This document shows, piece after piece, positions 16,155 through 45,624 of a stretch of DNA of 64,000 bases (within the stretch, counting starts at the first letter, position 1; each line of letters begins with the position of its first letter). The position numbers were made by a program, and so were the translations under genes. The notes beneath the pieces were generated by a model. It did not search any database, was not told where the DNA came from, and saw only the letters and a list, made by a program, of their open reading frames with translations. The stretch comes from Actinomycetales bacterium (GTDB taxonomy: Bacteria > Actinomycetota > Actinomycetes > JAJZTN01): positions 2,625-66,624 of the forward strand of contig JBQCDV010000038.1 in the NCBI GenBank assembly GCA_051960855.1, in the 5' to 3' direction.

Positions 16155-16188
16155 GCCGTCACCCCCGAGCCGGAACGCCGCTGCGTCG

Positions 16189-24254: not shown

Positions 24255-25528
24255 CCGGAGTGGGCGGCGTTCGTGGTCTCGTCGCCGGTGTTCGCGTCGC
24301 TGCGTGAGGTGCTGCCCACACTGCTACCTGCAGTGCTACCGGGACCGCTCTCGCTGGGGGAGGCGGTCGACGCCGTTCCTGGCCCGGGCTGCCCGTCGCC
24401 GGAGAGCAGCGCCATCGCTTTGCGCGACTGGGAGTAGGCCCGGTAGACCGCGCGCGTCAGGCCGAGACGACGACCGCCCTTGCGTGGCTGCTGCGGGTCG
24501 AAGTCGTCGTTGTCGACGGCCAGCGGCGAGTCCTCGCGGGTGAGCAGGGCCACGATCTCCTCGCGCACGATGCGGCGCAGGTCGTCCTCGGTTGCCATGT
24601 CGAACCATTCCTCGGATGTCGGGTCGGCGCCGCTCGGGGGCAGGAGCGGGTAGAGCGGGATCGTCGTGCGGGTGGTGCCCTTCGGGTCGTAGCGCGCCTC
24701 GTAGGCATCCACGACGTCGTCGGCGGGGCCGTCCATCAGCATCCGGCCGTCCTCCAGCCAGATCGCGCGGTCGCAGGTCTCGCGGACCACGGCTAGCGAG
24801 TGGCTCACGAGGAACACGGTGCCGGCCTCCTCGCGCAACTCGGCGATGCGGCGTTCGCTCTTCTGCCGGAACTCCGCATCGCCCGTCGCCAGCGCCTCGT
24901 CGATGAGCAGCACGTCGTGGGACTGTGCGGCTGCGATCGCGAACCGCAGGCGTGCTCCCATCCCGGAGGAGTAGGTGCGCATGGGCAACGAGATGAAGTC
25001 TCCGATGCCGGCGAAGTCGACGATGTCCTCGTAGGAATCCTTGACCTGCTGGGGCGTCATGCCCATCGCGAGACAGCCGAGCTCGACGTTGCGCTCCCCG
25101 CTCAGGTCGTTCATGAGGGCCGCGTTGACGCCGAGCAGGCTCGCCTTGCCCCGCGTCCAGACGGTCCCGCGCTCGGGCGGCAGGAGGCCGGCGATCGCCC
25201 GTAGCAGCGTCGACTTGCCCGACCCGTTACGGCCGATGAGCCCGATGGCCTCACCCTCGTACGCGGTGAAGCTGACGCCCTTGACGGCGTGGACCTCGCG
25301 CAGGGTGGGGGCATTCTGCCGACGCAGGATGCGGCGGAACGCGTTGGCGGCGTTGCCCTTGCCCGTCCCACTGCCGTAGACGCGGTAGACGACATGGACG
25401 TCGTCGACCACCACCGTCGGAGGCACGTCGAAGGGCCACGGGGTGGAGGACTCCACCGGTGCCGAGGGTGTGTCGCTGGCGCCCGGTTCAGCGAACCGGA
25501 AGCGGGTGTCCGTCTCAGCCGCGGCCAT
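24251..25528 (-). CDS. ABC transporter ATP-binding protein, polysaccharide/teichoic-acid export type (TagH/Wzt-like), with a ~150-aa low-complexity C-terminal tail
   Basis: Walker A 'GRNGSGKSTL', signature 'YSSGMGARLRFA' and Walker B 'LLIDEALATGD'. Stop overlaps the convergent 1345-aa gene. Start overlaps the permease stop. Confidence 0.85.
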   Translation of the reverse strand: MAAAETDTRFRFAEPGASDTPSAPVESSTPWPFDVPPTVVVDDVHVVYRVYGSGTGKGNAANAFRRILRRQNAPTLREVHAVKGVSFTAYEGEAIGLIGRNGSGKSTLLRAIAGLLPPERGTVWTRGKASLLGVNAALMNDLSGERNVELGCLAMGMTPQQVKDSYEDIVDFAGIGDFISLPMRTYSSGMGARLRFAIAAAQSHDVLLIDEALATGDAEFRQKSERRIAELREEAGTVFLVSHSLAVVRETCDRAIWLEDGRMLMDGPADDVVDAYEARYDPKGTTRTTIPLYPLLPPSGADPTSEEWFDMATEDDLRRIVREEIVALLTREDSPLAVDNDDFDPQQPRKGGRRLGLTRAVYRAYSQSRKAMALLSGDGQPGPGTASTASPSESGPGSTAGSSVGSTSRSDANTGDETTNAAHSG

Positions 25529-26340
25529 AGGTCTCCTCCCCTCGGTAGAAGACGGTGAAGCCGACGAGCAGGCCGACGACCGCCCAGACGATCGCGTACA
25601 GCCAGGTGTGCGGCCCGGCGTTGTGCTCCCGCAGCAGGGCGTCGCGGATGAGTTCGATGTAGACGGAGCCCGGGTTGGCTGCGAGTAGGAACTTGATGAG
25701 GTGGGGTGCGTCCTTGGCCTTGTCCTGGATCGAGTAGAAGACGCCCGAGAGGTAGAGCCAGGTGCGCAGGATGAACGGGAGCAGCTGGCTGACGTCCGGG
25801 ATGTTCGCGCCGATGCGTGCCATCACGAAGCTGGCGCCGACGTTGAACATCGTCTGCAGCAGCAGGGCGGGAAACACGAGGAGCCAGGCGAACGTCAGCG
25901 GCTCGCCGGTCAGCAGCACGATGATCGCCAGCACCACCATCGAGACCGCCAACTGCTGCAGCTCGATGATGACCAGCGCCAGCGGCAGGGTGGCCCGCGG
26001 GAAGTGCATTGCCCGGATGAAGCCGAGGTTGTCGATGATGGCGCGGGCACCGCTCTGGACCGAACGCTGCGTGTAGGTGAAGACGAAGATGCCGCAGACG
26101 AGGTAGGCGATGTAGTTGGGAACGCCGGACTTCGTCTTCAGCAGGATGCCGAACACGAGGTAGTAGACCGCGGCGTTGAGCAGCGGCGTGAGGACCTGCC
26201 AGACCTGCCCGAGGCGGGCGGTGCTGTACACGGCGAGGTTGCGCGCACTGGCGAAGGAGACGATGAAGTGCCGGCGACCCCAGAGCTCGGCGAGGTACTG
26301 CCCGAGCGGAGGGCGCTCCGCCGACTGCTGCAGGCCCATC
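25515..26340 (-). CDS. ABC-2 type transporter permease (TagG/Wzm-like)
   Basis: Six TM helices with an ABC-2 pattern ('GRRHFIVSFASARNLAVYSTARLGQVWQVLTPLLN'). Start chosen at the internal ATG (MGLQQ). The ORF extends to 26708 with a non-membrane, low-complexity N-terminus that is probably not translated. Confidence 0.7.
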
Positions 26341-26633
26341 CGCTCCGCGAACGCGCCGAGGGACTCGCCCGAGCGCTGGGCAAAGTGCGAGGAGGCCTCG
26401 CGCGGGTCGTTGTCAGGAGCCGGTGAGCTTCGGCCCGAGTCGTCGCCCGGGCCCCCACTGCCGCCGGTCCTGGCCACCGCTGTCGTCACGGGGGCCAAGC
26501 CTAGGCGAGCGGCCCGCCTGTGCCTGCTCACCCCGGCGCCTCGTCGTCCACAGACGGCAATCCGTTGCTCTTTCCTCCACAGCGCACTGGCATCCCACCT
26601 GCTCAGGGGGCCGTCGCGCCTAACTTCGAACCT

Positions 26634-28214
26634 ATGTACGAGTCCTCGAATGACCCTCCTATCCCTGAGGGAGACGGCTGTGGGAGTGGCGGCTTCCGGC
26701 GAGCGCATGCCGCTCCCGAGGGCGGCGCCTTCACCTTCAGCGGTCGCAGCCCTGGGGCGGAGGTGGTGGCGGACCTGGAGCGCCTGGAGCTACCGCGATG
26801 CTCGGACGCGGAGGTCGTGGAGGTCATCAAGGCGTGGCAAGCGGTGGAGTCGCGCGCGAAGGCACGACTGTGGGAGGCGGTGACGGAGTTCATGCGGCGT
26901 CGCCCCCGAGAGGGACGAGGCGAGGACCCCGGTGCGCCGTGGGACCGGGACGTATCGGGATTCGCCACGGCAGAGGTCGCGGCTGCCTTGAACCTGCCGT
27001 TGTCCGCCGCTGACAACCTCGCGGCGGAAGCCGCCGAGGTCCAGCAGCAGTACCCGGCGCTGGTCGAGTCCTTGGGCGAGGGCCGCGTCAACCCCTCCCG
27101 CTTCTACACGGTCGTCCGCGGGCTGCGCGGGGTGGACGAGAAGGTCGCCCAGGCGGTGCTGGAGGCGGTGCTTCCCGATGCCGAGGGCCCGGTGTCCAAC
27201 GGGACCCTGCGCAGCCGCCTGCGGCGTGCGGTGATGCGCGCCGACCCGGAGGCCGCCGTTCGCCGCTGCGAGGAGGCCGCCCGCCGGGACACCGCCCTGG
27301 TCCTCCACCCGAGAGAGGACGCGATGGCCAGCCTCGTGGCGACCGCCCCCGCGGTGGACCTGGTCGCCGTGCACACGGCGGTCGACGCCTTCGCGAAAAC
27401 GCTGGCCGACGCCGGCGCTCCAGGGGCGCTGGCCAAGCTTCGCGTGCGCTCCCTTCAGGAGCTCGTCCTCACCCACCCCGCCATCACGGGCCTGGGTCCA
27501 TGGCAGCGCGCTCTCGGACTGCCCGTCACCAGTGACACCTCCCGCACCCGTGGAGGGGCGCCTGCCGGACGGGAGCGGGGCCAAGCGACTGGCGGGGTCG
27601 GCTCGACAGCGGACGACGCCGTGGGAGGCGTCGACGACGAAGGGCGGCTCCAGCTGGGGCTGCCGTTGAGTGAGATCCCCACCTTCGGCTGCGGATCCGC
27701 CGGCAGGTTCTCCTCACTGACGATGGTGGCCATTCCATATGACGTGCTCCTGGGCGTCAGCGAGGCGCCTGGCGAGCTCGTGGGCTACGGGCCGCTTCCG
27801 GCTCCGGTGGCCCGCGCTATCGCCGGCGATCAGACCGGTACCTGGCAGAGACTCGTGACCGATCCGCTCAGCGGCTCCGTGCAGGACTTCGGGACGACGC
27901 GCTATCGGCCTCCGGCCAAACTGGCCGGCCACGTCGTCACCCGAGACTGGACATGTCGAGCTCCCGGCTGCTCTGCCCCTGCCGTCGTCTGCGACCTCGA
28001 TCACGCGACCCCGTACCGCCATGACGGTACGGGTGGGGCCACCTGCGCGGCCAACCTCATCCCGCTGTGCCGTCGGCACCACCGGTGCAAGACGTTCACG
28101 GGCTGGACGGTGCGGCGTGAGCCCGACGGCAGAGTCGTCTGGCGCACACCCACGGGGCACGAGTACGTGACCTATCCCGACGGGCCGGTCCAGGACTGGG
28201 CGGCGCAGGACTGA
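26634..28214 (+). CDS. DUF222 / HNH endonuclease-domain protein (13E12-repeat family)
   Basis: C-terminal HNH motif 'CDLDHATPYRHDGTGGATCAANLIPLCRRHHRCK' and a DUF222-like N-terminal region. Start set at ATG 26634 (MYESSND). The ORF is open from 26520. Confidence 0.75.
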   Translation: MYESSNDPPIPEGDGCGSGGFRRAHAAPEGGAFTFSGRSPGAEVVADLERLELPRCSDAEVVEVIKAWQAVESRAKARLWEAVTEFMRRRPREGRGEDPGAPWDRDVSGFATAEVAAALNLPLSAADNLAAEAAEVQQQYPALVESLGEGRVNPSRFYTVVRGLRGVDEKVAQAVLEAVLPDAEGPVSNGTLRSRLRRAVMRADPEAAVRRCEEAARRDTALVLHPREDAMASLVATAPAVDLVAVHTAVDAFAKTLADAGAPGALAKLRVRSLQELVLTHPAITGLGPWQRALGLPVTSDTSRTRGGAPAGRERGQATGGVGSTADDAVGGVDDEGRLQLGLPLSEIPTFGCGSAGRFSSLTMVAIPYDVLLGVSEAPGELVGYGPLPAPVARAIAGDQTGTWQRLVTDPLSGSVQDFGTTRYRPPAKLAGHVVTRDWTCRAPGCSAPAVVCDLDHATPYRHDGTGGATCAANLIPLCRRHHRCKTFTGWTVRREPDGRVVWRTPTGHEYVTYPDGPVQDWAAQD

Positions 28215-28277: not shown

Positions 28278-29187
28278 AGATGACGGGCGGCCTGCCGAGC
28301 AGGGTCATGCGCCAGGCGGTGGTCCAGCGCATGGGCTGGCGCGGGCCGGCGTCGGTCCTCCATCCCTCGGCAAAACCGCGCAGCCAGACAGCCAGGTCGC
28401 GGCTGGGTCGCAGCCGGACAGTCATGAGCGCCGTCCAGACGGCGAGGTAGGCGACCGCCATTGGCCACGGCAGGCGTCGGCGCGCAAGCCACACTCGGTT
28501 GCGCGCGTTGAGGCGGAGGTAGGCGGCATGGCGGCCAGGCGTGGTCGCCGGATGCTCGACAACGACCAACGGCTCGTAGGCGATCGCCCACCCGGCGTCG
28601 AGGGCGCGCCAGGCCAGGTCCGTCTCCTCGTGGGCGTAGCCGAACTCGTCGGGCAGACCGCCGACGGACTCGAGCACCGTCCGTCGCACGGCGCATGCGC
28701 CTCCCAGGAAGGTGGTGACGTCCGAGCCACGCCGGGGGTCTCCCACCAGCACTCGCGGCACGTGTCGCCGTTGCACGGCTCCAGAGCCGGGGTCGGCCAG
28801 CAGGAAGCTCAGGATTCCCAGACCGGGGCGGTTGGCGAAGGAGGTGACGATGACACGTCCCGCATCTTCGGCAGCGAACTCGGCGTCATCGTCGAGGAAG
28901 GCCACGACTGGTGCCGCGGTCGCGGCCCAGCCCACGTTGCGGCCACCGGGGATGCCGAGGTTCGTCTCGAGGTCGATGGCCCTGACGCCGGGCATCGGTG
29001 GGACGGGAGCGCCGTTGCCGACGACGACGATCTCCGCCGTCACGTCGCGGAACCGGCGGACGCTGTCGACCGCGCGCGCCAGTTCGGCGGGGCGGTCGCC
29101 CATTGTCAGGATGACGACGGCGAGGTCCGGCGAGGCGCCGTTCGGGCTGGTAGTGCCGCTGGCCGCGGGAGTTGCCGGCGGCTTCAT
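28276..29187 (-). CDS. Glycosyltransferase family 2
   Basis: 'LAVVILTMGDRPAELARAVDSVRRF ... VVVGNG ... VAFLDDDAEF' GT-A with DxD. Start ATG (MKPP) overlaps the upstream stop (ATGA). Confidence 0.75.
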   Translation of the reverse strand: MKPPATPAASGTTSPNGASPDLAVVILTMGDRPAELARAVDSVRRFRDVTAEIVVVGNGAPVPPMPGVRAIDLETNLGIPGGRNVGWAATAAPVVAFLDDDAEFAAEDAGRVIVTSFANRPGLGILSFLLADPGSGAVQRRHVPRVLVGDPRRGSDVTTFLGGACAVRRTVLESVGGLPDEFGYAHEETDLAWRALDAGWAIAYEPLVVVEHPATTPGRHAAYLRLNARNRVWLARRRLPWPMAVAYLAVWTALMTVRLRPSRDLAVWLRGFAEGWRTDAGPRQPMRWTTAWRMTLLGRPPVI

Positions 29188-30047
29188 CGCAGCCGGCTCG
29201 ACAGGACGATGCTCGCCAGATGCAGGCACCACTGCAGCACCGCGACGACGAGGAAGGCGACCACCAGCACGCGGGTGGCGGGCACAGGGGCGGTGGCCGA
29301 GCCGGCGACGACGTCAACGATCCCCGCGACCAGAAGCAGCAGCGAGGCCTCAGTCCCCCCGATGATGCGGTGGAAGGAGATGCGGGCGGCGAGGGCGCGG
29401 GCACGGGCGACGCTCGAGGAGCGGGGTGTCGTCGCCTCGTCCGTCACCGCAGGCATTCCTGCGCGGGCGCGGGCGACATCCACCAGGTCCGTCTCAGCCT
29501 TGATCAGCACGACCCCGAGGCCGGCAAGTGCCCCGACGAGGGCGTAGCCGTTGATGCCGGAATGAGCCGCGCGGATCCCGGCAGCCACCATCACGGCGGA
29601 CTCCACGACGTAGTGCCCCACGCGATCGAGGTAGACCCCGAGGAGGCTCAGCCTGCCCGTCCACCGAGCCACTTCGCCGTCGGAGCAGTCGAGCAGCAGA
29701 TAGAGCTGGATGAGCAGGGCCGAGAGAACCGCGCCCCAGACGGACGACCACAGCAGCGCCACTGCGCCGAGAAGGCCCACCACGATCATCCCGGCCGTCA
29801 GGCCGTTGGGACTGGCCCCCACCCTCACGAAGATGCGGGTGGCATAGATGGACAGGTAGCGCATGTAGAGGACGCCCGCCCAGTGCTCACCGCTGCGACG
29901 TCCGATGATGCTCGGTGGCTGCGTCACGGCCCGAAGCTCAGCGATGCTGGGGCGAGCCGGACGGTCCGGTCGAGCCGCACGGTCCGGTCGACCCGGTTGG
30001 TGGGGGGAGGCGCCGGTCATGTGGGACCCGGAAGATGTCTCAGCCAT
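29184..30047 (-). CDS. CDP-alcohol phosphatidyltransferase family membrane protein
   Basis: Signature 'DCSDGEVARWTGRLSLLGVYLDRVGHYVVE', i.e. D-G-x2-A-R-x8-G-x3-D-x3-D. About 6 TM helices. Confidence 0.8.
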   Translation of the reverse strand: MAETSSGSHMTGASPHQPGRPDRAARPDRPARPSIAELRAVTQPPSIIGRRSGEHWAGVLYMRYLSIYATRIFVRVGASPNGLTAGMIVVGLLGAVALLWSSVWGAVLSALLIQLYLLLDCSDGEVARWTGRLSLLGVYLDRVGHYVVESAVMVAAGIRAAHSGINGYALVGALAGLGVVLIKAETDLVDVARARAGMPAVTDEATTPRSSSVARARALAARISFHRIIGGTEASLLLLVAGIVDVVAGSATAPVPATRVLVVAFLVVAVLQWCLHLASIVLSSRLR

Positions 30048-31101: not shown

Positions 31102-31874
31102 CAGCTGCCCCGTGTCGCGACGATGCCGGCAGCGATGCCCTGCGCGCGGGCCAAGTCGTCGTGGTTGTCGATCTCGACCCAGTCCACGTGTCCGATCGGC
31201 GCCACGTCGACCCGCACACCGCGGTCGGCGAGCTCCTGGTAGCCGTCCTCGTAGTACAGCTGGGGGTCGCGCTCCCACGTGGCCTGCAGCGCGGCGACGA
31301 GGTCGTCCACCACGGGCGGCTCGATCAGCGTGACACCGATGTACTCACCGGTCGCGTCCTCCGGAGGCATCAGCTTGGTGATGCGGCGCACGCCCTGGCC
31401 CTCAGACCAGACGACCTTCATCTCCTCGTCGGCGAGCGACTTCTCGGTATCCAGCGCGAGGACCAGACCCGGACCGGGCAGGGTCCCCTTCGCGGCGAGC
31501 AGGGTGTGCTCGACCGACACCGGGTGCACGGTGTCGCCGTTGGCCAGCACCACCCCCTGGGCGAGGAGGTCACGAGCGCACCAGAGCGAGTAGCAGTTGT
31601 TCCACTCCTCGGCCTTGTCGTTGTGGACGAGCTCCAGCTGGACGCCGTAGCGCTCCTCGAGAGCCTGCTGCCTCGCGGCCACCTGGTCCGCGGCGTAGCC
31701 GACGACGACGGCGACGTCGGTGAGCCCGACCGCTGCGAAGTTCGCCAGCGTCAGGTCCAGCACCGTCGTCTCCTGCTCCGTGCCCGCGCCGATCGGCACC
31801 AGGGTCTTGGGCAGGGTGTCTGTCCACGGACGCAGCCGGCGTCCGGCCCCTGCCGCGAGCACGAGTCCGATCAT
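31101..31874 (-). CDS. Sugar/polyol-phosphate nucleotidyltransferase (LicC-like NTP_transferase)
   Basis: 'MIGLVLAAGAGRRLRPWTDTLPKTLVPIG' is a glycine-rich NTP_transferase N-terminus. About 257 aa. Confidence 0.75.
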   Translation of the reverse strand: MIGLVLAAGAGRRLRPWTDTLPKTLVPIGAGTEQETTVLDLTLANFAAVGLTDVAVVVGYAADQVAARQQALEERYGVQLELVHNDKAEEWNNCYSLWCARDLLAQGVVLANGDTVHPVSVEHTLLAAKGTLPGPGLVLALDTEKSLADEEMKVVWSEGQGVRRITKLMPPEDATGEYIGVTLIEPPVVDDLVAALQATWERDPQLYYEDGYQELADRGVRVDVAPIGHVDWVEIDNHDDLARAQGIAAGIVATRGS

Positions 31875-31887
31875 GATGCGGATTCTC

Positions 31888-33708
31888 CTATTCGTCGCTG
31901 TCGCGAGTGTTGCTGGCGTGCATGTCCCTGTGTGGCCTCACCGTGCGGACATGGCTGCCCGAGTCTGCCGTGGCCCGAGCCGGCCGGGCGCTGCCGGGTC
32001 GCACGACGGGTCGCACGACGGGGCGGCGGCGCGGGGCGGTCTCGCGGAACCTGCGCGAGGCCCCCGCCACCACGCAGGCCGCCACCCACGCTGTCAGAGC
32101 CACCAAAGCGGTGACGCCGAGCCGCCCCCCGCCGAACGCGGCGACCCACACCAGCGCAAGTCGCCCGACAGCACCGAGAGTCGCCGCCTGCGGCGGCCAG
32201 ACGGGCAGCCGGGGCGCGGCCGTGAGTCGGTACACGACGTCGTAGTGCCGCTGCGCGAGGACCAGGACGAGCACGAACGCCGCTGCGGGGGCGTGCCGAC
32301 CGCCCGGATCGCGCGCGAGGAGGACGCCGAGCAGCCCGACCGCGGCGTACTCGACGGCGCGGAGCGCGGCGGGCGCCAACCACCACCAGCGCACGAGGGC
32401 GGCGCCACGCGGCAGCCGCGGACCGGTCGGGGCGAGGTCGGCCATCGACGCCAGCACGGCTGCGATGGACTGCGCCGCGCTCTCGCCGGGGGCCGGTCGG
32501 CGCAGGGCGCGCAGGAGCCGACCTCCGACGGTCCAGGCGGCAGCGAGCAGGCCGAGGACGAGCAGCGCGACGAAGACGACTCGGGCGTTCGTGACGGCGG
32601 CGAGCACCGCGATGAGCAGCCAGCGCTCACCGATGGGCAGCGCGAGCACGCGACGCAGCGCCACCCCTCTGGTGCTGGCCATGCGTCCGGAGAACAGCTC
32701 CGCCGGTGCGGACTCGTCCACTCGAGTGGCATCCGCGACCGCAGCGGCGGCCGTGGGTTCGGGCGCGGGCCCGGGTCCGGGTTCAGGCGCGGGTCCGGGT
32801 TCGGGCGCGGGTCGTGCCCTGTCCACGGCGCTGAGATGGAAGCCGAAGTCGGCGACGTGGCGGGCGGTCTGCAGCGCGATGCACAGCGTCGCCAGCAGCC
32901 AGACGTCATGACCCTGCCGAGCGGCCCCATAGGCGAGGCCGCCGTAGACGACGAACTCCTTGAGCCGGTCGAGGGCCGCATCCAGCCACGCGCCGCGCTC
33001 GGAGTAGGAGACGGCGTAGCGGGCGAGCTGCCCGTCGACGCAGTCGAGCGCGAACGACAGCTCGAGCAGGAGCGCGCCGACCACCATCCACACCCTCACC
33101 CCCGTCCCGAACGCCGCAGCGGTGGCGAGCGCGGTCAGCAGGGCGAGCCAGGTCACGGCGTCGGGCGTCAGACGCCGGCGGGCGAACCACCGTGCGAGAT
33201 AGCGCGACCACGGGCTGATGGCGGCGCTGGTGAAGACTCCGTCGGCGGACTTCACTGCCGACCGGAGGCGCACCGCCTCCTCGTCCACGGTGTCGCAGGC
33301 GGCGACGGCGGCGGCCGCAGCCTCGGCGGTCGGGGCGGCTGTCGACACCAGCGGTTCCGGCACGGGGCGTGTGGGGGTCAGCCCTGAGGTGACGAGGGCC
33401 GCGGTGAGGGAATCCGGCAGGAGGGAGCCCGCCTCGGCAGCCGCGAGGTCGAGAGCGGGCCGGTGCTCCGGGTCGACGGAGAGCAGACCACCTGCGGCGC
33501 GCACGCCGCGGCGTTCGTCACGCAGCAGCAGCCGGAGGGCGTGGTCGTGCCCGACCCACGCGCCGTCTACCAGCACCACGGTCTCAGCCGGGTCGACCCG
33601 ACCGAGCGTTTGCGGGTCCGACGACACCCTCACGTCGCGGACTCGACCCCCTCCCACGAGGCGGACGCGATGACGCAGCTCGCCAGGGTCGGAGGAGCCA
33701 CGCGGCAC
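31888..33708 (-). CDS. Three-part membrane protein: an N-terminal cytoplasmic domain of unknown function, a CDP-alcohol phosphatidyltransferase domain, and a C-terminal multi-TM domain
   Basis: The central 'DCVDGQLARYAVSYSERGAWLDAALDRLKE' is a second CDP-OH-phosphotransferase signature. A Pro/Glu/Gly/Ala linker follows (PAPEPGPAPEPGPGPAPEP, 32756-32818), then a hydrophobic C-terminal third. Confidence 0.7.
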   Translation of the reverse strand: MPRGSSDPGELRHRVRLVGGGRVRDVRVSSDPQTLGRVDPAETVVLVDGAWVGHDHALRLLLRDERRGVRAAGGLLSVDPEHRPALDLAAAEAGSLLPDSLTAALVTSGLTPTRPVPEPLVSTAAPTAEAAAAAVAACDTVDEEAVRLRSAVKSADGVFTSAAISPWSRYLARWFARRRLTPDAVTWLALLTALATAAAFGTGVRVWMVVGALLLELSFALDCVDGQLARYAVSYSERGAWLDAALDRLKEFVVYGGLAYGAARQGHDVWLLATLCIALQTARHVADFGFHLSAVDRARPAPEPGPAPEPGPGPAPEPTAAAAVADATRVDESAPAELFSGRMASTRGVALRRVLALPIGERWLLIAVLAAVTNARVVFVALLVLGLLAAAWTVGGRLLRALRRPAPGESAAQSIAAVLASMADLAPTGPRLPRGAALVRWWWLAPAALRAVEYAAVGLLGVLLARDPGGRHAPAAAFVLVLVLAQRHYDVVYRLTAAPRLPVWPPQAATLGAVGRLALVWVAAFGGGRLGVTALVALTAWVAACVVAGASRRFRETAPRRRPVVRPVVRPGSARPARATADSGSHVRTVRPHRDMHASNTRDSDE

Positions 33709-33737
33709 GATGACGACGACGGTCAGCAGGGACTCCG

Positions 33738-36418: not shown

Positions 36419-38384
36419 GCTGCTCTCGCGCGGTCAGCTCTCGGACGCGCTGGTAGCGGCGGAGCGCCAGGGGATCGCCGTTCAGCTCTGGGGCGGGGGC
36501 CCAGCCGGGCCGCACGTCGGTCGCCGTCTCGAGGAACTTCTGCTCGTCTGCCTCCCACGTGTGTCCCAGGGAGTGCCGACACAGCACATAGCCCTGGCTC
36601 GTCGTGCGGTAGATCCCACCGCCCGCGTCGCGCACCGCAGTGAGCAGGTGCAGGTCGACGCCGCGTGGCTGAGGAGCCCAGCCGCCCACCGCCGCAAGGT
36701 CCTCTGCACGGATGAGGATGGTTCCGCCTGCCACCCACTCGACGTAGCGCTCCGGGCTCGCCTCGACGCGCCGGTGCAGCGTGCGGTCGGACGTCGCCAG
36801 GTACACCCATTCGACGAGCATCCCGGTCACCGTCGCTCCCGACCACGTCGAGGCTTGCACCAGGTCGGTGAGGTGATGCGGGCCGTACCAGTCGTCATCG
36901 TCGAGTTTCGCGAGGAATGCCCCGGACGCGGCGCGTGTGGCGTGCTGAAGGACGGTTCCCAGAGGGAGGTCCGCCGAGGCGGCAAGCATCTGGACCGCTA
37001 TGCCGCGTTCACGGAGGGGGGCCAGGAGCCGATCGAGCTCGGCGGCAGGCACGTCCAGGTCGTGCAAGGCCAGCACCAGCTCCAGTTCGCCATGGGCGGC
37101 GAAGTCCTGCCGGGCCACCGTGGCGAGGGCCAGGTCGAGGTAGGACAGGCGCCGGGTCGCCAGGAGGACTGAGACCGAGGGGCGGCGCGGGCCGAGGGCC
37201 CGCAGGCCGGCCCCGTCAAGGAGGCGACGCCATGCGCCGACTGTTGCGTGGTCGCGCAGAGCAGCCCTGCGCAGTTGCAAGGAGTGGAGCTCGCGCTCGT
37301 CGGGGCCGCCCTCACAGGCCTCGTGGCCTCTCGCATGCGGGGAGGCGAGCAACTCGGAAAGTTCAGCGCCTACGAGCCGGTTCACGGTCAGCGGCAGCCG
37401 GTCCCCCGAGATGGGTACCTGGGCGGCGGCGAGCTGTGTGATGAGTCGGGCGGCTGTGATTGGCGCGACGTCGCCCAGGGCGCTCACGTCCACAGACCGC
37501 AGCCTCCGGAGGGGATGCAGGTGTCGGAACGACAGGGGCGCTTGTCCTCGGCCGAGGTCGACGACGACCGCGTCGTCGTCGTCGACGACCCGGAGGCGTC
37601 CGTCGGTGACGAAGCGCCCGACACCGTGAATCTGATCCCGCTGAAAACCGTGGGGGTTGCAGGTGATGACGTCGACGGGCGGCACGCACTCGGACACGAG
37701 CAGCCGCGCGGGGCCGCCGTGCTGCTGCTCGTTCGGGTCCAGCTCGCCCACGCCCAGCACCACATCGAAGGGCGAGATGTGCGGGTTGTCGGATCGCCAG
37801 GTGTGGTGGGCGTTTGCCACGGTGCGAGCCGCAGAGTCCCCCGACACCCAGGCGAGGTCTACGCCGTCCTCAACACCGACGCGCATTCCCGCCAGCGGCA
37901 GGCGCCGGCGCCCGAGCTCGCTAGCCGCGAGCAGCGTTGACAGTACTGCGTGAACGCGGACGGCGGCTGGCAGCTGGACACGCAGCTGCACTCCGCGAGC
38001 GGGTGCGGGCAGCTGTTCGAGACTCGCCCGAACCGCTGGGCCCAGCCGGGGATCTGAGAGCGAGATGGCGCCTCCCCGGCCGACCCACGGCTCCTCGGTG
38101 ATGAGTTGTACGACACGACTCCGCCCGAGCGACGGCGCAACAGCAAGCAGCGTGCGAAGCTCGGCGAAGCTCGAACACGCGATGACCACGCGCTCCCAGG
38201 TCCGCGCGTAGTCCTCCAGCGCACCCACCGAAGGTGCGGGCCACTCGAGCCGCTGGCAGTCGGGGGGCAGGTCGGGTGCCCCCTTCTCGACTGCAAGGTC
38301 GCTCGCGCCCGCTAGGAGCAAGCACGTCCCAGCCTCGGCACCTGGTGAGGTCACGGCACACTCCCACGTGTTGCAGCCCGGCAT
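36390..38384 (-). CDS. Large glycosyltransferase: a ~400-aa N-terminal domain of unknown function plus a C-terminal GT2 domain
   Basis: C-terminal 'SVSVLLATRRLSYLDLALATVARQ ... FLAKLDDDDWYGPHHL' is GT-A with DxD. No motif was recognised in the N-terminal region. The 3' end overlaps galE by 29 bp. Confidence 0.6.
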   Translation of the reverse strand: MPGCNTWECAVTSPGAEAGTCLLLAGASDLAVEKGAPDLPPDCQRLEWPAPSVGALEDYARTWERVVIACSSFAELRTLLAVAPSLGRSRVVQLITEEPWVGRGGAISLSDPRLGPAVRASLEQLPAPARGVQLRVQLPAAVRVHAVLSTLLAASELGRRRLPLAGMRVGVEDGVDLAWVSGDSAARTVANAHHTWRSDNPHISPFDVVLGVGELDPNEQQHGGPARLLVSECVPPVDVITCNPHGFQRDQIHGVGRFVTDGRLRVVDDDDAVVVDLGRGQAPLSFRHLHPLRRLRSVDVSALGDVAPITAARLITQLAAAQVPISGDRLPLTVNRLVGAELSELLASPHARGHEACEGGPDERELHSLQLRRAALRDHATVGAWRRLLDGAGLRALGPRRPSVSVLLATRRLSYLDLALATVARQDFAAHGELELVLALHDLDVPAAELDRLLAPLRERGIAVQMLAASADLPLGTVLQHATRAASGAFLAKLDDDDWYGPHHLTDLVQASTWSGATVTGMLVEWVYLATSDRTLHRRVEASPERYVEWVAGGTILIRAEDLAAVGGWAPQPRGVDLHLLTAVRDAGGGIYRTTSQGYVLCRHSLGHTWEADEQKFLETATDVRPGWAPAPELNGDPLALRRYQRVRELTAREQLSEARRGGA

Positions 38385-38558
38385 GATCGGTGGTCGCCGC
38401 AGCGTAGCGAGGCCCTACCCTCGACTGTCGTGCCTCGTCGACGACTGCTCCCCTGGCGTTCCGGTGTCGAGTCCGCAATTGCCGTCGAGCCAACGAGCGC
38501 CTCTCGCCGGATCGATAGCCGCTGCTCGCGGCAGTGGCCCCTTCCCGTCCGCGTTGGC

Positions 38559-39917
38559 ATGGCGACGATCCCAGCGCGTGAGTCGGGGCTTCGGGTCGTC
38601 GTGGAGTCGATGCTCGATCAGGCTGAAGAAGTGTGTGTATACCTCAACGGATATGAGGAGGTCCCTGACTGGCTCGCTGCGGCCCCCCGGGTTGTTGCGC
38701 GACTTGGCGAGGATCTTGGCGACCGAGGCAAGTTCGCGTTTGTTGATGGCTTCGATGGGGTCTACCTGACGGTCGACGACGACATCGCCTACCCGCCCGA
38801 CTATGTCGCGGCCACGGTGTCCGGACTCCAGCGGTACCCCGGCGCCGTGGTGGGCTGGCACGGGAGCCTCCTCGATCCGGACATCACCGACTACTACGAC
38901 CACAGCAAACGCCACGTGTTCAATCACGGCAGGGCGTGCCTGCGCGATGAGGTCGTCCACGTGCTCGGGACGGGTGCACTCGGCTTCGATACTCGTGCGC
39001 TGAGCGTCTCCCTCCGCGACTTCGAGGTCCCTAACACCGCTGACCTCTACTTTGCGCGGCTGTGTCAACGACAGGCCGTGCCCCAAGTGGTTCTCGCTCA
39101 CCCTCCGGGGTGGGCGCCGCCGATCCCTTTTCCCCGTGAGGCCACGATCTGGGGTGCCTCTGTAGACAACAACGCCTCGAGGTTCGACACGCGCACCGCA
39201 GCGGCCGCGCTTCTGCCCGAGCTGGCTGCCATGCGCCTGTCGACCCTGGCTACGGCCGGTCCGCTGGCCGTCTTGCGGGTCCGCGACGCTGAGCGAGCCG
39301 TCGGAGTGGAGGCAGCCCTTCGGACGCTCCTGATGCCCTTCCGGATCGCTGTCGCGACCATTGCTGACGAGGCTGCCCACAGTGCTGGCGCTGCCCCGAT
39401 GACTGCCACCGACTCGGGCGCTGCAGAAAACCGTCCGTCCGGCTGGACGGTCTCAGCGGCCACCGACGGAGGGACGCTCGTGTTGACCGGCGACCACGGA
39501 AGGGTGCGCTTTCCGTGGCCGCTGCTGCTGGGCCCCGACACCGCCGCGGTGGACCCGAGCGGCGTGGTCCTCGCGGCAGAACCAGAGCGGCATGCCTCGC
39601 TTACAAGGCGGCTCGCCGAAGAGGAACTGCACCATGTGACCGTGGTCAACCCCCTATCGCCGCTCGACCGTCATCCCGGGCAACTGCTGCTGTGGGCCAT
39701 CCCTCGACTCGCCGGCGCGCCTGACGATGGCACTTGCTTGGCTGCAGCGGCGTTCGAGCCGGTCGTCGAAGCCGACCTCGTTGCGACGGTGCGCCGGCTT
39801 CTTGACCGCCCCGACGTGGCGGCGGCCATGCTGGACGCACAGCTGGCGGCAACTGGCCGGCGGGCGCGAACAAAATGCGGGTCTGCGCTCTGGAACTGGC
39901 TGCAGGAGCAGGCCTAG
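38559..39917 (+). CDS. Putative GT-A fold glycosyltransferase (DXD)
   Basis: 'MATIPARESGLRVVVESMLDQAEEVCVYLNGY ... YLTVDDDIAYPPDYV' resembles nucleotide-diphospho-sugar transferases. Start set at the internal ATG. Visibly lower GC than the window average. Confidence 0.45.
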   Translation: MATIPARESGLRVVVESMLDQAEEVCVYLNGYEEVPDWLAAAPRVVARLGEDLGDRGKFAFVDGFDGVYLTVDDDIAYPPDYVAATVSGLQRYPGAVVGWHGSLLDPDITDYYDHSKRHVFNHGRACLRDEVVHVLGTGALGFDTRALSVSLRDFEVPNTADLYFARLCQRQAVPQVVLAHPPGWAPPIPFPREATIWGASVDNNASRFDTRTAAAALLPELAAMRLSTLATAGPLAVLRVRDAERAVGVEAALRTLLMPFRIAVATIADEAAHSAGAAPMTATDSGAAENRPSGWTVSAATDGGTLVLTGDHGRVRFPWPLLLGPDTAAVDPSGVVLAAEPERHASLTRRLAEEELHHVTVVNPLSPLDRHPGQLLLWAIPRLAGAPDDGTCLAAAAFEPVVEADLVATVRRLLDRPDVAAAMLDAQLAATGRRARTKCGSALWNWLQEQA

Positions 39918-41068
39918 AGCGACAGCAACGCGAATTCCTGCTCCCACCGATCCGCAACGACCTGAGGGCTGAACCGCTGGACCGACGCGTGCGCTGCCTC
40001 ACCCAGGCGACGGCGCAGCGTCGGGTCGACCATGAGCCGCTCCATCGCAGCGGCTAGCGCGTCGAGGTTGCCTGGCGGAAGCACGAGTCCGTCGGACTCG
40101 TCGGTCACGAGCTCGCGCACTCCTGGTGCCACGTCGAAGGCGATGCACGGAAGGCCGTACTCCATTGCCTCCGTGAGGACGACCGGCATTCCCTCGCTAC
40201 GTGACGACAGCACGTAGATCGAGGCCTCCTGCAGGGCTGCACCGACGTCGGTCGTGGCACCCATGAGCTGGACGCTCCCCTGCAGCTCGAGTTCGTCAAT
40301 CTGCTCCTGGAGTGACGCCCGGAGCGGCCCGTCCCCGTAGATCCGCAGCCGCCATTCCGGGTGGCGAGGGGTCAGGCGAGCCCAGGCGGAGATGAGCATG
40401 TCGAAGCCCTTCTCCGGGGCCAAGCGCCCAAGAGACACGACGGTGGGAGCAGTGAGGTCGCTCGTGCGTTCAGCGAGGACGCCTAGTGGGTTGGGAATGT
40501 AGCCCGCGTTCGTCATCCCGTCGAAGGCCCACAGGTCCGCGTCGCGCTGTGTCAGGAGCAGGAACCGATCCGCTCCCGCAAAGAAGCGCTTCACTCGGGC
40601 GTATCGCCCTGACTGACGTGAGGCCTGATAGGACTCGTGGCTCATTCCGATGACCAACGCTCCGGCAGTGTCTGCCAACCGCACCCACTCCATCGCCCAG
40701 ACTTGGGTAACGATGACAATCGGGTCGTCGGCCTGCCGAATCAGTGCCGTCAACTTCGCGGCGCCGCTGCGCTGGACGGAAACGCGGCGCCGGCGCTCGA
40801 TCTGGCGCCTGACATTGAGATTGTGCAGCAAGTGCGGCGGATGCCAGTAATTTGGCGGGTCCGCCTCATGAAGAATGGTGACAGGGTGTCCGTAGGTCGC
40901 CGGGTCATAGTGAGCATCGCGAGAGTGGACGATGCCGACCAGACGGACACGGTAGCCCCTTCCCGCAAGAAGCTCCGCGAGCGACAGGACGAAGCGGGTC
41001 ATCCCTCCCAGGTCCTCGATGTTGTTGGCCACGATGAAGACGTCGCGGGAACGGATCTGATCGCTCAC
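39914..41068 (-). CDS. Glycosyltransferase family 4 (group 1)
   Basis: 'VFIVANNIEDLGGMTRFVLSLAELLAGRGYRVRLVGI ... EGMPVVLTEAMEYGLPCIAFD'. GTG start overlaps the upstream stop (GTGA). Paralogous to the C-terminal domain of the 1345-aa fusion. Confidence 0.8.
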   Translation of the reverse strand: MSDQIRSRDVFIVANNIEDLGGMTRFVLSLAELLAGRGYRVRLVGIVHSRDAHYDPATYGHPVTILHEADPPNYWHPPHLLHNLNVRRQIERRRRVSVQRSGAAKLTALIRQADDPIVIVTQVWAMEWVRLADTAGALVIGMSHESYQASRQSGRYARVKRFFAGADRFLLLTQRDADLWAFDGMTNAGYIPNPLGVLAERTSDLTAPTVVSLGRLAPEKGFDMLISAWARLTPRHPEWRLRIYGDGPLRASLQEQIDELELQGSVQLMGATTDVGAALQEASIYVLSSRSEGMPVVLTEAMEYGLPCIAFDVAPGVRELVTDESDGLVLPPGNLDALAAAMERLMVDPTLRRRLGEAAHASVQRFSPQVVADRWEQEFALLSL

Positions 41069-43899
41069 TGCGGAAGCTCCACCAGCTCTGGAAACAGATC
41101 GTCGACGACTTGACGGGCCGCGTCGCCGCGGTCGTACTCGCAGTAGGAGGCGAGGAAGCGGTCGTAGCGGGCGGCGAACTGCGGCTGCCACGAGTCGACG
41201 TCCGACAGCCTCTCGACCAACTCATCTGAGGTCTCGACAAGTGGGCCGGGAGCCTCCTGCGAGAGATCGAAGTACGCGCCGCGCTCACTCGACACGTAGC
41301 TGTCATAGTCGTAGGTGTAAAAGATCATCGGCCGGCCGGTGAGAGCGAAGTCGAACATCACCGAGGAGTAGTCGGTGACCAGAAGGTCGGCCGCAAGCAT
41401 CAGTGGCGTGATGTCGGGAAGCTGCGAGACATCCCGAGCCACATGGCGTGCGGACTCCGGCAGTCGCGAGCGGTCGAGGTAGTGCGACCGCACGAGCAGC
41501 AGAGTGCCGGGCAGCTTCTCGGCGAAGGCCTGGAGGTCGATCGGCAGTTCAAACTCTTCGTGGCCGCCGCGGTAGCTCTCGCGAAAGGTGGGCGCATAGA
41601 GCACGATGCGCCGGTCCTCTGGAAGCCCAAGCGCGCGCCGCGCGGCGACTTTGGCCTCGGTGTCGGCGCCAACGAGAGGATCGTTGCGGGGGTAGCCAGT
41701 TCGCAAGAGTTGCCCCGTCACGTGCAATCCCCGGACGAGTGTCCGGACATCGTGCTCGCTCCGCACCAGGAAGTCATCCCACCGCGCCACCATGGCCCGG
41801 TGCGCGGCGCGAGCCACATCGCTCTGGCGCAGGAGACCCGGGCTGTCCTCGCCCATCCGCTTGAGCGCGCTCCCATGCCAGGTCTGGAGGTATCGGACCC
41901 GACCGGGTTTGACCACGTCGCGGGGAAATCCTTGGTTGTCAACCCACACCTCAGCGCGGGCGAGGGCCATCCACCAGGCCCAAGACCCGCGTTTCACGAG
42001 GCTCGCGGAGCGCGGAAATCCACTGCGGTCGCGGGCGTAGGACCACACCAGCTCCCAGCGCTCGGCGTCTGGGCGTCCGTCCAGTCGGCGTCGTAGCTCC
42101 TCGTACACGTATTTTGGAGAGTCGGAGTAAGACCGTCCCATATGGCTCTCAAAGACGACGGTGCGACGACGGCGCGGCAGGTGTGTCAGCACCGTCCGGA
42201 AGACACTCGCCTTCGTGTCCTGGCTTGCTAGGGAGGTGGTGAGCTCCTTCCGAAATGCTCGAAGCCTGTCCCGAAGCACTGAAGCGGCGGAGCCAGCTGC
42301 CACGGTGCGCACCAGCTCATCCGCAGCGCGGGTCGATCGCCGCATCGCGGTCGCCTGCAGCGCGAGGTTGCCGTTGCGGGTCCGGTAGGTCTCAACCGCG
42401 TCGAACAGAGCGGCCGGTTGGCGCCGGGCGAGTGGGACGACAGCGGGCGCCGCGTCGGGAGGGAGCGAGAGCGGAAGGTAGGCCTCGTCCCGGCCGACCT
42501 GGATGCGCAGGTTGACGTCCCAGACCCGGTCGAGCGGAGTGCGGGGCGTGACGAGCTGACCGACGGGCACAGCCGCCCGCCAGCGCACCATCCCGTCCGT
42601 GAATTCCACGTCCGTGGCAGGAACCTCGCCGCCGGCAGTCCCACCGCGCTGCCGGACCCGGACGGTGAACACGGCGTCCCGTGGGATGCGACCAAAGTGG
42701 TTGCGCGTTTCTGCGCTTATGTTGAGTCGTCGAGGGTCGCACGAGAGCTCGCTGATGGTCGATGTCAGCGGCAGCTTCGCGAGAGGTAGGTCCTGCCAAC
42801 CGAGGCTCGTCACATCGAGCCACTCGCGATCTTCGGCGTCCTGCGGGAGACCCCAGAAGATGCGGCCGCCCTCGCGGACGAGGTCGACGTCGAGCTTGCG
42901 GCCCTGCGTGAGGTAGGCGCTCAAGGCCACGAGGCGGCGCGCGTCACGGCGCCGGATCAGGTGGGCGGCGACCGCTAGCAGCCGATCCGCCTTGTCGTAG
43001 GCCTCAGGACCGATGTGCTCGAGATAGGCACCCATGAGTGTCATGAACCGCTCGTGGAACTCCGGCGTCCGCAGCGGCAGGTCGTTCAGGTAGAGCCGCA
43101 GGTCCTGCTTGAGAAACTTGACGTCCTTGTGGTTGCGCAGTTCCTCGCGGCCGTGCTCCGCGAAGAAGGCGTCGATGTCGTGGTGGATCGAGAGGCGGTT
43201 TTCGAGCCCGGTGATGTCGTCGCGGCGGTTGGTGATGGAGAGGCTCGTCGCTTTCTCGGCGACGTTCCAGAAATAGACGACGGGCGGGATCAGGGTGATA
43301 CCGCGTGCAAGACAGTAGGCCTTTGCCGTGAAGAGCAGGTCCTCATACTGGCGCCCATCCGGGAACCGAAGACCCTCACGGTCGAGGAACTCACGACGGT
43401 AGAGCTTGTTGGTCGAGATGGTGTCGTAAAGAAGGTCTGGTTGTTCGTCGACGTCCTGGTAGGTCACCGTCGAGCGGTAGAGCCATTCGTACCAAGGCGT
43501 CACGCGACCGCCCTGATCGAGATGCACACGCACAATGCGGCCCGAGACGATGTCGCTGCCGGTCCGCACCGCCGCCTCGTAGAGATTGCGACAGGCGTGG
43601 TGATCGATCGTGTCGTCGCTGTCCAGGAAGAAAAGGAAGGGGGCCGAGCTCGCGGCGATGCCGGCATTGCGAGGCGTTCCGGGCGCCCCCGAGTTGGTGT
43701 CCAGCCGCACGAAGCTGACCCGGTCGTGATCGCGAGCCAGCTGCGCGGCGACCTCGGGTGTGTTGTCGGTCGAGGCGTCGTCGACGATGACGACCTCGAC
43801 CGCGCGAAGCGACTGCGCCAAGGCAGAGGCCACCGCCTGCGGGAGCCGGTTCGGATCGTTGTGGACGATGACCACTACCGCGACAAGAGCATCGGTCAC
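41065..43899 (-). CDS. Bifunctional GT2 glycosyltransferase plus CDP-glycerol glycerophosphotransferase (TagF family)
   Basis: N-terminal '[24 protein letters not shown] ... [12 protein letters not shown] ... FLDSDDTI' is GT2. C-terminal '[13 protein letters not shown] ... VLYAPTFRE ... [11 protein letters not shown] ... [11 protein letters not shown]' is TagF-like. Start set at the GTG overlapping the scoB stop. The ORF is open to 44127. Lower GC. Confidence 0.75.
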
Positions 43900-44597
43900 G
43901 CGGGCGACCCCGCCGCGTTGCGAACGTCGTTGCTGTCGCCTCCGTCGGCGACCGGGTGCAGGTCGGGGGCCACGATGAGCGACGGCTCGGTCTTGTCCCG
44001 GACCTCCTCGACGGTGACGCCGGGGGCGAGCTCGCGCAGCACGAGCCCCTCCGGGGTGACGTCGATGACCGCGAGGTCCGTGATGATCCGCTGGACTACG
44101 GCCTTGCCGGTGAGCGGCAGGGCGCACTCGTCGACAATCTTGTAGCTGCCGTCTTTGGCCACGTGCTCCATCAGCACGATGACCTTCTTCGCGCCGTGGA
44201 CGAGGTCCATGGCGCCACCCATCCCCTTGACCATCTTGCCGGGGATCATCCAGTTGGCCAGGTCTCCGCTCGCCGACACCTGCATGGCTCCGAGGATGGC
44301 TGCGTCGACGGCGCCGCCCCGGATCATTCCGAAGCTCAGCGAGGAGTCGAAGAAGACCGCTCCCGGCAGCAGGGTGACGGTTTCCTTGCCGGCGTTGATG
44401 AGGTCGGGATCCTCGTCGCCTTCGTAGGGGTAGGGGCCGACGCCGAGGATGCCGTTCTCGCTCTGGAGCACGACGGTCACGCCCTCGGGAAGGTAGTTGG
44501 GCACCAGCGTCGGCAGCCCGATGCCGAGGTTGACGTAGGCGCCGTCCGGCAGCTCGCGGGCCGCGCGCGCGGCCATCTGCTCGCGGGTGAGAGCCAT
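43896..44597 (-). CDS. scoB: 3-oxoacid CoA-transferase subunit B
   Basis: '[30 protein letters not shown] ... ENGILGVGP'. ATG overlaps the scoA stop (TGATG). Confidence 0.85.
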
Positions 44598-45427: not shown

Positions 45428-45624
45428 GTCTGCCTCCTCCGTTCCTCGGCACTCTAACGGCCCGCCCGCCGCGGCCCGATGTCCCACACTCGGCCTTTGC
45501 TTGCCGCTAGCCTCGCGCGGGCTCCTGATGATCCATTCGGGTGAAATCCCCGTGCCCGCCTCGCGTGGCCGCTTGCCGCGCGACTTCAGGACCACGCCGT
45601 TCCGGTCGAGGGGGAGAGGTGCGC

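Follow-up and report, generated by a model that had tools for sequence, protein, structure and literature searches.

A DUF5941-containing CDP-alcohol phosphotransferase in a conserved actinobacterial gene cassette, a candidate glycerol-phosphate transferase of the cell envelope

A 64,000-nucleotide stretch of DNA from an Actinomycetales bacterium (contig JBQCDV010000038.1, positions 2,625 to 66,624; hereafter the window) carries a long gene for a CDP-alcohol phosphotransferase (CDP-AP), which we call gene A. It heads a cassette of seven genes, A to G, whose other members encode a nucleotidyltransferase (gene B), an enzyme resembling glycerol-1-phosphate dehydrogenase (G1PDH, gene C), a second and shorter CDP-AP (gene D), a family 2 glycosyltransferase (GT2, gene E), and the permease and ATPase of an ATP-binding cassette (ABC) exporter (genes F and G; Table 1). 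An original prediction, made by reading the sequence alone, described the gene A product as a three-domain membrane protein with the CDP-AP signature in its middle. Judging from the neighbouring genes and from the relatives of its product, we lean towards regarding gene A as the catalytic transferase of this cassette, which would add glycerol-phosphate to an exported envelope lipid or polymer.

Table 1. Features of the gene A locus and its surroundings, in window coordinates (aa, amino acids; TM, transmembrane helix; TRF, Tandem Repeats Finder; AF2, AlphaFold2; pLDDT, predicted local distance difference test score)
Feature	Position	Strand	Basis
Gene A, long CDP-AP	31888-33708	-	606-aa open reading frame, GTG as first canonical start; PF01066 + PF19365
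Probable 5' extension of gene A	33709-33729	-	In-frame LLTVVVIV; homologue N-termini aligned; start codon inferred
Cytoplasmic N-domain (aa 1-150), modelled as cytidylyltransferase-like as in AF2299, lacking GxGxR	33259-33708	-	AF2 pLDDT 84-94; Foldseek
Juxtamembrane helix and TM1-TM4 of CDP-AP core (aa 158-297)	32818-33237	-	AF2 helices; profile match to AF2299 and DIPPS
Active-site signature D222xxD225GxxAR(x8)G239xxxD243xxxD247	32968-33045	-	Read from translation
Disordered cytoplasmic TM4-TM5 loop (aa 298-345) with (PAPEPG)n insertion	32674-32817	-	pLDDT < 50
18-bp tandem repeat, 3.3 copies, encoding PAPEPG units	32755-32813	.	TRF, score 83
TM5-TM6 of CDP-AP core (aa 346-403), conserved LPIGERW and GRxLR	32500-32673	-	DUF5941-less subfamily ends after GRxLRSL; PIPS alignment
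C-terminal extension, about four TM (aa 404-557), DUF5941	32038-32499	-	PF19365 on aa 443-554
Arg/Pro-rich cytoplasmic tail (aa 558-606), lineage-specific	31891-32037	-	Alignments, TRF, AF2 model
Gene B, LicC/IPCT-like nucleotidyltransferase, 257 aa	31101-31874	-	Pfam NTP_transferase, NTP_transf_3
Gene C, G1PDH-like Fe-ADH_2 enzyme, 353 aa	30040-31101	-	G1PDH model, 4rgq
Gene D, short CDP-AP paralogue, 7/8 signature residues, D4 = His	29184-30047	-	PF01066, 30.2 bits
Gene E, GT2, no hydrophobic TM segment	28276-29232	-	Pfam
DUF222 reading frame between genes E and F	26520-28214	+	Pfam
Gene F, ABC-2 permease, Wzm/TagG-like	25515-26708	-	Pfam/NCBIfam
Gene G, ABC ATPase, TagH/Wzt-like	24251-25528	-	TagH models
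GT2 + TarF-like Glyphos_transf + GT4 protein, 1345 aa	20217-24254	+	Pfam/NCBIfam
GT2 + TarF-like Glyphos_transf protein, 1020 aa	41065-44127	-	Pfam/NCBIfam
Two LCP (LytR-CpsA-Psr) ligases	15114-17664	-	
SpoIID + three CWB2-repeat protein	45541-47976	+	
PAS-GGDEF-EAL protein	12377-14992	-	

The 606-aa open reading frame (ORF) of gene A is present where it had been described, at 31888-33708 on the minus strand, with GC fractions of 0.80/0.59/0.87 at codon positions 1, 2 and 3, a pattern typical of a genuine gene in a window of 72% GC. An antisense ORF (31720-33387, plus strand) was rejected as a real gene: its GC at third codon positions (GC3) is 0.79 against 0.87 for gene A, and it has no family match. 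That gene A itself is an artefact, either a merged gene prediction or a decaying pseudogene, is largely refuted and deserves almost no weight. The two points that could be raised for it are that the first beta-strand of the N-domain lacks a canonical start codon and that about 50 aa of DUF5941 are absent relative to Streptomyces. The predicted architecture, a single large CDP-AP with additional N- and C-terminal parts, recurs as one protein in hundreds of genomes (about 940 homologues), and not as a fusion of unrelated neighbouring families; the frame is unbroken with high GC3, and every catalytic residue is intact. An independent metagenome-assembled genome (MAG) of an 'Actinomycetes bacterium' holds a contig (L083) that follows the window in collinear order for 9.2 kb, with 97.7-98.2% DNA identity, and encodes a partial protein 97% identical to the gene A product. 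Its frame is uninterrupted from residue 156 to the stop, which settles the suspicion of a sequencing frameshift for that part of the gene only.

The annotated start is less secure. The sequence in frame upstream of the GTG at 33708 comprises 54 further open codons back to the nearest in-frame stop, and by manual count the third position is G or C in 25 of the 28 codons directly upstream. The upstream translation, ...TALLTPESLLTVVVIV running on into PRGSS, contains LLTVVVIV, which matches the N-terminal first beta-strand of homologues (e.g. MTLAVVVATG, KEAVLVRVLVIG). No ATG, GTG or TTG occurs in frame within this first-beta-strand region upstream of 33708; there are candidate CTG starts at 33729-33727 and 33726-33724, with GGAG just upstream. 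Because homology and coding-type GC3 both extend upstream of the GTG, we propose that the true start is probably the CTG at 33726 or 33729; the alternative suggested by the same data is an eroded N-terminus. The divergent GT2 gene has its start more probably at the GTG of 33804 than at 33738.

The catalytic signature of gene A is complete. It reads D222-C-V-D225-G-Q-L-A-R230, then eight residues, then G239-A-W-L-D243-A-A-L-D247, and all eight signature residues (D222, D225, G226, A229, R230, G239, D243 and D247) are invariant in 42 aligned homologues. The fourth aspartate (D4) is present in 82/82 loci. In CDP-APs the metal is bound by D1-D3, and D4 probably serves as catalytic base, its change to Asn nearly abolishing activity but not substrate binding (PMC4634129). 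The P(D/N)xx(T/S) cytosine-binding motif defined in the same work is found at the start of TM1 (P182-D-A-V-T186). Gene A matches Pfam CDP-OH_P_transf (PF01066) with 36.4 bits (cut-off 22, E 8.3e-9). NCBIfam models of phospho-inositol-type synthases match it at E 1e-15 to 7e-17, with scores below the equivalog cut-offs for phosphatidylinositol-/archaetidylinositol-phosphate synthase (NF045883, 58.0 bits for a cut-off of 170; NF040950, 61.9 for 180).

An AlphaFold2 model of the product, built with 42 homologues, had a mean pLDDT of 72.7; the N-domain scored 84-94 and the core as high as 97. It comprises a juxtamembrane helix (158-177) and helices at 182-201, 205-232, 237-264, 270-297 and 359-403, the signature falling on TM2 and TM3, where solved structures also have it. 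The model gives good support to a catalytic core of six TM whose signature is intact. Searched against the PDB, the gene A profile placed AF2299 of Archaeoglobus fulgidus at the top (E 4e-11), with IPCT-DIPPS also among the closest solved relatives; Foldseek with the model likewise ranked AF2299 first, followed by IPCT-DIPPS, bacterial phosphatidylinositol-phosphate (PIP) synthases and CHPT1/CEPT1. Several charged residues or histidines are conserved in TM4-6 (R283, H284, D287, R352, R353, E361, R362, R376, R397 and R400) and, speculatively, would suit a phosphorylated acceptor.

The tandem repeat that encodes the PEPG stretch is real, with slightly different limits (32755-32813, earlier given as 32756-32818), but the role assigned to it as a linker between domains has to be abandoned. 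Only four TM helices precede it and a six-TM core needs two more, so TM5-6 must follow. PIP-synthase chains align to gene A profile positions 180-371, and many family representatives without DUF5941 stop exactly at profile position 380-382, their own C-terminus (for example ...GRLMRSLALPRQVVR in P0196 and ...GRVLRTISR in P0228), a position that maps to GRVLRSL, residues 396-402 of gene A. The PEPG stretch thus appears in the model as a lineage-specific insertion inside the CDP-AP fold, in the TM4-TM5 loop, which by the topology of solved CDP-APs would be cytoplasmic. The (PAPEPG)n insertion is absent from Streptomyces and every other homologue aligned, and the MAG contig L083 has exactly one 18-bp unit fewer; that it is a dispensable insertion of microsatellite type is well supported. 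The three-domain boundaries shift accordingly. The catalytic core continues past the PEPG stretch, and of the C-terminal domain of about 250 aa originally described the polytopic character holds and DUF5941 is matched, but only the last four or so helices belong to it. The DUF5941-less proteins (P0196, P0228 and many other representatives) make up a sister subfamily with a degenerate nucleotidyltransferase-like N-domain and a six-TM core, some of whose members carry long low-complexity inserts in the N-domain.

The soluble N-terminal domain is shorter than the 190 aa or so first estimated: it spans about 150 aa, and residues 158-177 form the juxtamembrane helix. It was said to hold no recognisable motif and has indeed no Pfam match, but it models as a cytidylyltransferase-like domain of the AF2299 type. 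In Foldseek, 398-413 columns of the gene A model align to AF2299 chains (E 5e-5; TM-score by target 0.56-0.60), and since these chains have only 330-341 residues, an alignment of about 400 columns covers the AF2299 N-domain too. Weak Foldseek matches to RmlA were also found, and longer relatives (700-865 aa) with a full-size N-domain give weak NTP_transf_3 matches (E 3e-4 to 6e-4). The GxGxR motif is absent from the gene A N-terminus (..VVVIVPRGSS..). The domain is best read, from its model, as AF2299-type, cytidylyltransferase-like and catalytically degenerate. A recent duplication of gene B into this domain is not supported, as hhalign gave a probability of 0.1% between the N-domain profile and the gene B nucleotidyltransferase family.

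Two solved proteins are therefore instructive for comparison. AF2299 (PDB 4o6m/4o6n/4q7c) has in common with the gene A model a cytoplasmic N-domain, which in gene A is best read as nucleotidyltransferase-like, the juxtamembrane helix, the six-TM core and the full signature, at 17-18% identity, and its structure has room for the glycerol moiety of CDP-glycerol (PMC4634129). Gene A adds about four TM helices (DUF5941), the PEPG loop insertion and an Arg-rich tail and, unlike AF2299, is bacterial and lies inside a cassette with an exporter and a glycosyltransferase. IPCT-DIPPS (PDB 4mnd; NF041135) shows the order read from the gene A model, a nucleotidyltransferase fold followed by a CDP-AP, its IPCT half being matched here by the separate gene B and its DIPPS half by genes A and D. 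The scores to this model are far below its cut-off of 580 (42.7 bits for gene A, and 39), the gene A N-domain lacks GxGxR, and the locus has a G1PDH-like gene and no inositol-phosphate synthase.

The C-terminal extension scores 30.9 bits against PF19365 (DUF5941; cut-off 27), over profile positions 84-191 of 208 only, and lacks about 50 aa relative to Streptomyces. Conserved DUF5941 motifs are retained (W443-L, R450, E453-Y and H488-Y-D-x-V-Y-R494). In the tail, a 12-bp x 2.3 tandem repeat at 31995-32022 encodes PVVRPVVRP. A layout of 10 TM, like that of the eukaryotic choline/ethanolamine phosphotransferases, which take lipid acceptors, is well supported by the model. CHPT1/CEPT1 (PDB 9uet, 8gyw, 8ero) use a soluble CDP-alcohol donor and combine a six-TM core with 3-4 C-terminal TM to give about 10; Foldseek aligns them to gene A over 432-447 columns at 10-12% identity, with E only 0.01-0.03. 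Homology of the two extensions is unsupported, because the extra helices of gene A, when modelled alone (the C-terminal 215 residues, pLDDT 67.8), match nothing.

Among 5.8 billion proteins searched, gene A had 939 homologues, nearly all of about 590-610 aa with PF01066 and PF19365 and named 'DUF5941 domain-containing protein' by NCBI; the majority are from Streptomyces, at 40-47% identity. A profile search gave 456 clusters (50% identity) at E <= 1e-30, with named members from Streptomyces, Actinopolymorpha, Micromonospora, Spirilliplanes, Pilimelia, Plantactinospora, an Actinomycetales MAG and Solirubrobacteraceae. At least 552 matched stretches in a scan of species-representative genomes carry the cassette, the best 80 matched loci all being of Streptomyces type. 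By sequence, gene A belongs to a catalogued, uncharacterised actinobacterial family, PF19365, and is not unique. Peculiar to its lineage are the PEPG insertion, a DUF5941 of reduced length and, possibly, a CTG start. The PF19365 proteins of Streptomyces share the family and the seven-gene cassette, from which gene A departs by these first two traits, by another tail and by its teichoic-acid-locus context. From its synteny with zitB (SCO6751), SCO6752 is probably the orthologue in Streptomyces coelicolor, and SCO6752-SCO6758 probably the orthologous cassette. In our literature search DUF5941 was not mentioned in any paper found, and for SCO6752-SCO6758 nothing turned up beyond brief references to SCO6753 and SCO6757 in papers devoted to other subjects. 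In a 2026 synteny survey the Streptomyces genes figure as orphans, in synteny with araM, tagG, tagH and crtB, and are given no function.

The gene order A-B-C-D-E-F-G is collinear in 77 of the 82 loci fetched for the cassette comparison. Gene B has LicC as its best PDB match (1jyk, E 2.6e-12). Gene C matches the NCBIfam G1PDH model NF002022 at E 3e-73 (246.8 bits, below the cut-off of 413), and its best PDB matches are archaeal G1PDHs (4rgq, E 2e-42), with the metal ligands, the Asp of ..DG.. and the His of ..H...H.. and ..HG.., aligned. Genes A to E are tightly packed: B and C join at an ATGA in which the stop of the one and the ATG of the other overlap, and the ORFs listed for C/D and for D/E overlap as well. 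Gene G scores 185-195 bits with NCBIfam TagH models, below their cut-offs.

The original prediction expected a role other than simple lipid synthesis, and what surrounds gene A points the same way, to a glycopolymer or glycolipid of the envelope and not to housekeeping phospholipids: the cassette itself includes a GT2 and an ABC exporter of TagH/Wzm type, and TarF-like polymerases and LCP ligases lie nearby. By its gene content the window is a locus of teichoic-acid type. In Actinopolymorpha pittospori the cassette is collinear and stands beside two LCP genes, and in a Solirubrobacteraceae MAG A-B(-C) lies beside MGDG_synth-type and TarS-like glycosyltransferases. In Streptomyces venezuelae it is located between a cation-efflux gene and genes of the squalene/phytoene-synthase family and for a polyprenyl synthase, which we take to be a hopanoid cluster. 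A link of the cassette to that cluster was discarded, as the window, Actinopolymorpha and MAG loci have no such neighbours. One Propionibacteriaceae MAG protein (P0385, locus L086 10001-12970) runs for 990 aa and then off the contig end, and joins CDP-OH_P_transf, DUF5941 and a TagF-type Glyphos_transf domain. Such a fusion, in the Rosetta-stone sense, hints at a tie between the gene A family and CDP-glycerol polymerases.

The smaller stand-alone paralogue that had been noticed in the same operon, gene D, is a more unusual protein than first supposed. It keeps D1, D2, G, A, R, G and D3 of the signature and a P-N-x-x-T motif, but its sequence ...G-V-Y-L-D-R-V-G-H places a His at D4, in agreement with the AF2299 alignment, and its orthologues have Ala in 76 cases (Streptomyces) and His in 4. 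Given the part played by D4 (PMC4634129) and its absence here, the gene D product can probably still bind CDP-alcohol, while its catalysis would be impaired or atypical. It had been proposed that the two paralogues are both active, one donor-specific and the other acceptor-specific, the extra domains of the long one serving substrate channelling or polymer recognition. Their joint conservation in 77/82 loci and the retention of nucleotide- and metal-binding residues in both agree with this, yet we find the idea improbable: D4 is lacking from every gene D orthologue examined, its change to Asn nearly abolishes the activity of PIPS (PMC4634129), and the PEPG 'linker' is not a domain boundary. 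Two specialised active transferases are thus unlikely, and gene D more likely encodes a non-catalytic or atypical partner of the gene A product. Since CDP-APs are dimers (PMC4634129), a heterodimer of A and D is, by analogy, a reasonable idea.

These elements can be arranged into a pathway in which gene A would act as the glycerol-phosphate transferase. The gene C enzyme would reduce dihydroxyacetone phosphate to sn-glycerol-1-phosphate, which the gene B enzyme, with CTP, would convert to CDP-glycerol. At the cytoplasmic face, the gene A product would move glycerol-phosphate onto a membrane-anchored acceptor, releasing CMP, with the gene D product, lacking D4, perhaps as a non-catalytic partner. 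Either a glycolipid or a lipid-linked glycan could serve as acceptor, the latter built with the GT2 of gene E, which would supply or decorate the glycosyl acceptor, and the extra helices of gene A would form the site that receives it, in line with proposals for CEPT-type enzymes. Genes F and G, resembling TagGH and Wzm-Wzt, would then export the product as an envelope glycolipid or glycopolymer. The proposed outcome, glycerol-phosphate on a lipid-linked envelope polymer with export of TagGH type, is that of the TagD/TagF (TarF) wall teichoic acid pathway and of LtaS. The enzyme folds of these pathways are unrelated to those found here: the transferase would be a CDP-AP, activation LicC-like and not TagD-like, and the precursor enzyme G1PDH-like.

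Several observations weigh against this pathway and keep our confidence in it moderate. Every NCBIfam equivalog model scores gene A far under its cut-off, so that its substrates can be deduced from neighbours only, and the literature search found no functional study or biochemistry for any DUF5941 family member. TagF-type enzymes use CDP-glycerol made from sn-glycerol-3-phosphate, to which a G1PDH-fed pool is no straightforward fit. Enzymes of the LicC/IPCT type take many different phospho-substrates (PMC12275187), and AF2299 and DIPPS act on soluble substrates (PMC4634129). The likeness of the N-domain to nucleotidyltransferases is structural only, as the hhalign result indicates; a PDB structure search with the lone C-terminal 215-residue model gave nothing at E < 3; and the P0385 fusion was seen in one protein only, truncated where its contig ends.

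The 10-TM layout also allows gene A to be seen as a Kennedy-type phospholipid or phosphoglycolipid synthase, which would transfer one head group from a soluble CDP-alcohol to diacylglycerol or glycosyl-diacylglycerol and leave a membrane lipid in place of a polymer, for example a phosphatidylglycerol-like lipid with a head group of sn-1 configuration. We consider this a doubtful but serious competitor. It would account for the match to CHPT1/CEPT1 over 432-447 columns, and CDP-APs with lipid acceptors have three or four more C-terminal TM helices (PMC4634129); an sn-1 head group would come from the G1PDH-like enzyme, and a GT2 is at hand for a glycolipid. It sits less well with the TagH/Wzm-type ABC-2 exporter of the cassette, typical of polymer export, with the teichoic-acid/LCP loci found here and in Actinopolymorpha, and with the one protein that joins this architecture to a TagF-type domain, and the NCBIfam phospholipid-synthase models score far below cut-off.

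The closest solved relatives, AF2299 and IPCT-DIPPS, process no lipids, and the operon has a polyol-phosphate dehydrogenase and a cytidylyltransferase, which together would suit the synthesis of a compatible solute from CDP-glycerol and a soluble polyol phosphate (e.g. diglycerol phosphate or glycerophospho-inositol), the gene A N-domain being a relic of a bifunctional IPCT-DIPPS. This seems very improbable to us in view of the GT2 and ABC-2 exporter conserved in the cassette, the four or so extra TM helices of gene A, the context of cell-wall synthesis, the score of 42.7 bits against the IPCT/DIPPS equivalog cut-off of 580, and a cassette that has no phosphatase.

If glycerol-phosphate transfer to the envelope is indeed the function of gene A, a bolder version of the pathway can be formulated, to which we attach only a tentative belief. 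The cassette could be an LtaS-independent route to poly(glycerol-phosphate) lipoteichoic acid (LTA), or to another polymer of sn-1 glycerol-phosphate, in Actinomycetota, among which LTA is reported for Streptomyces, Thermobifida and Agromyces, and lipoglycan for Corynebacteriales and Micrococcus. Streptomyces and Thermobifida make polyglycerolphosphate lipoteichoic acid, actinobacterial genomes have no clear LtaS orthologue, and an alternative pathway has been postulated (PMC3196553). Bacterial G1PDH homologues are found mainly in Firmicutes and Actinobacteria, Streptomyces included, and have been discussed only in relation to archaeal-like lipids (PMC6431249). G1PDH and the LicC-like enzyme would give the CDP-glycerol enantiomer derived from sn-glycerol-1-phosphate; the 10-TM CDP-AP, possibly as an A-D heterodimer, would prime or polymerise glycerol-phosphate on a glycolipid at the cytoplasmic face; and the TagGH-like ABC transporter would export the polymer. 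The cassette is in this respect a concrete candidate pathway bearing on two questions, LTA without LtaS and the actinobacterial G1PDH. If the proposal is true, it gives these G1PDH homologues a role without archaeal-type lipids, and gene A would be the first CDP-AP, and not a TagF- or LtaS-type enzyme, to build an envelope glycerol-phosphate structure. If only a single head group is transferred, gene A is an ordinary member of an uncharacterised family.

The cassette of the window has some local peculiarities. The DUF222 ORF between genes E and F is shared with the 98%-identical MAG contig, but the cassettes of Streptomyces and Actinopolymorpha lack it. An HNH endonuclease domain is common in DUF222 proteins, and this ORF may have split the operon as a mobile insertion. 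The gene G ORF has 425 aa, compared with 261-265 aa in the Streptomyces and Actinopolymorpha cassettes, and the extra sequence has no Pfam match. In an actinomycete MAG contig A-F follow one another in this order too, and the permease gene has no called ATPase gene behind it; at the position of gene G on the contig of the MAG relative no gene is listed.

Elsewhere, the window also holds GalE, several GT2 and GT4 genes and one acyltransferase_3 gene. A tblastn search of the 64 kb with an approximate Bacillus subtilis TagD query gave no match, which argues only weakly for the absence of TagD. The GC content drops to 0.65-0.68 at 38000-44000, compared with 0.70-0.77 elsewhere in the window. This region includes a GT4 gene (39914-41191), the 1020-aa TarF-like gene and ORFs without Pfam match (38430-39917 on the plus strand, 38415-39380 on the minus strand), and may have been acquired horizontally.

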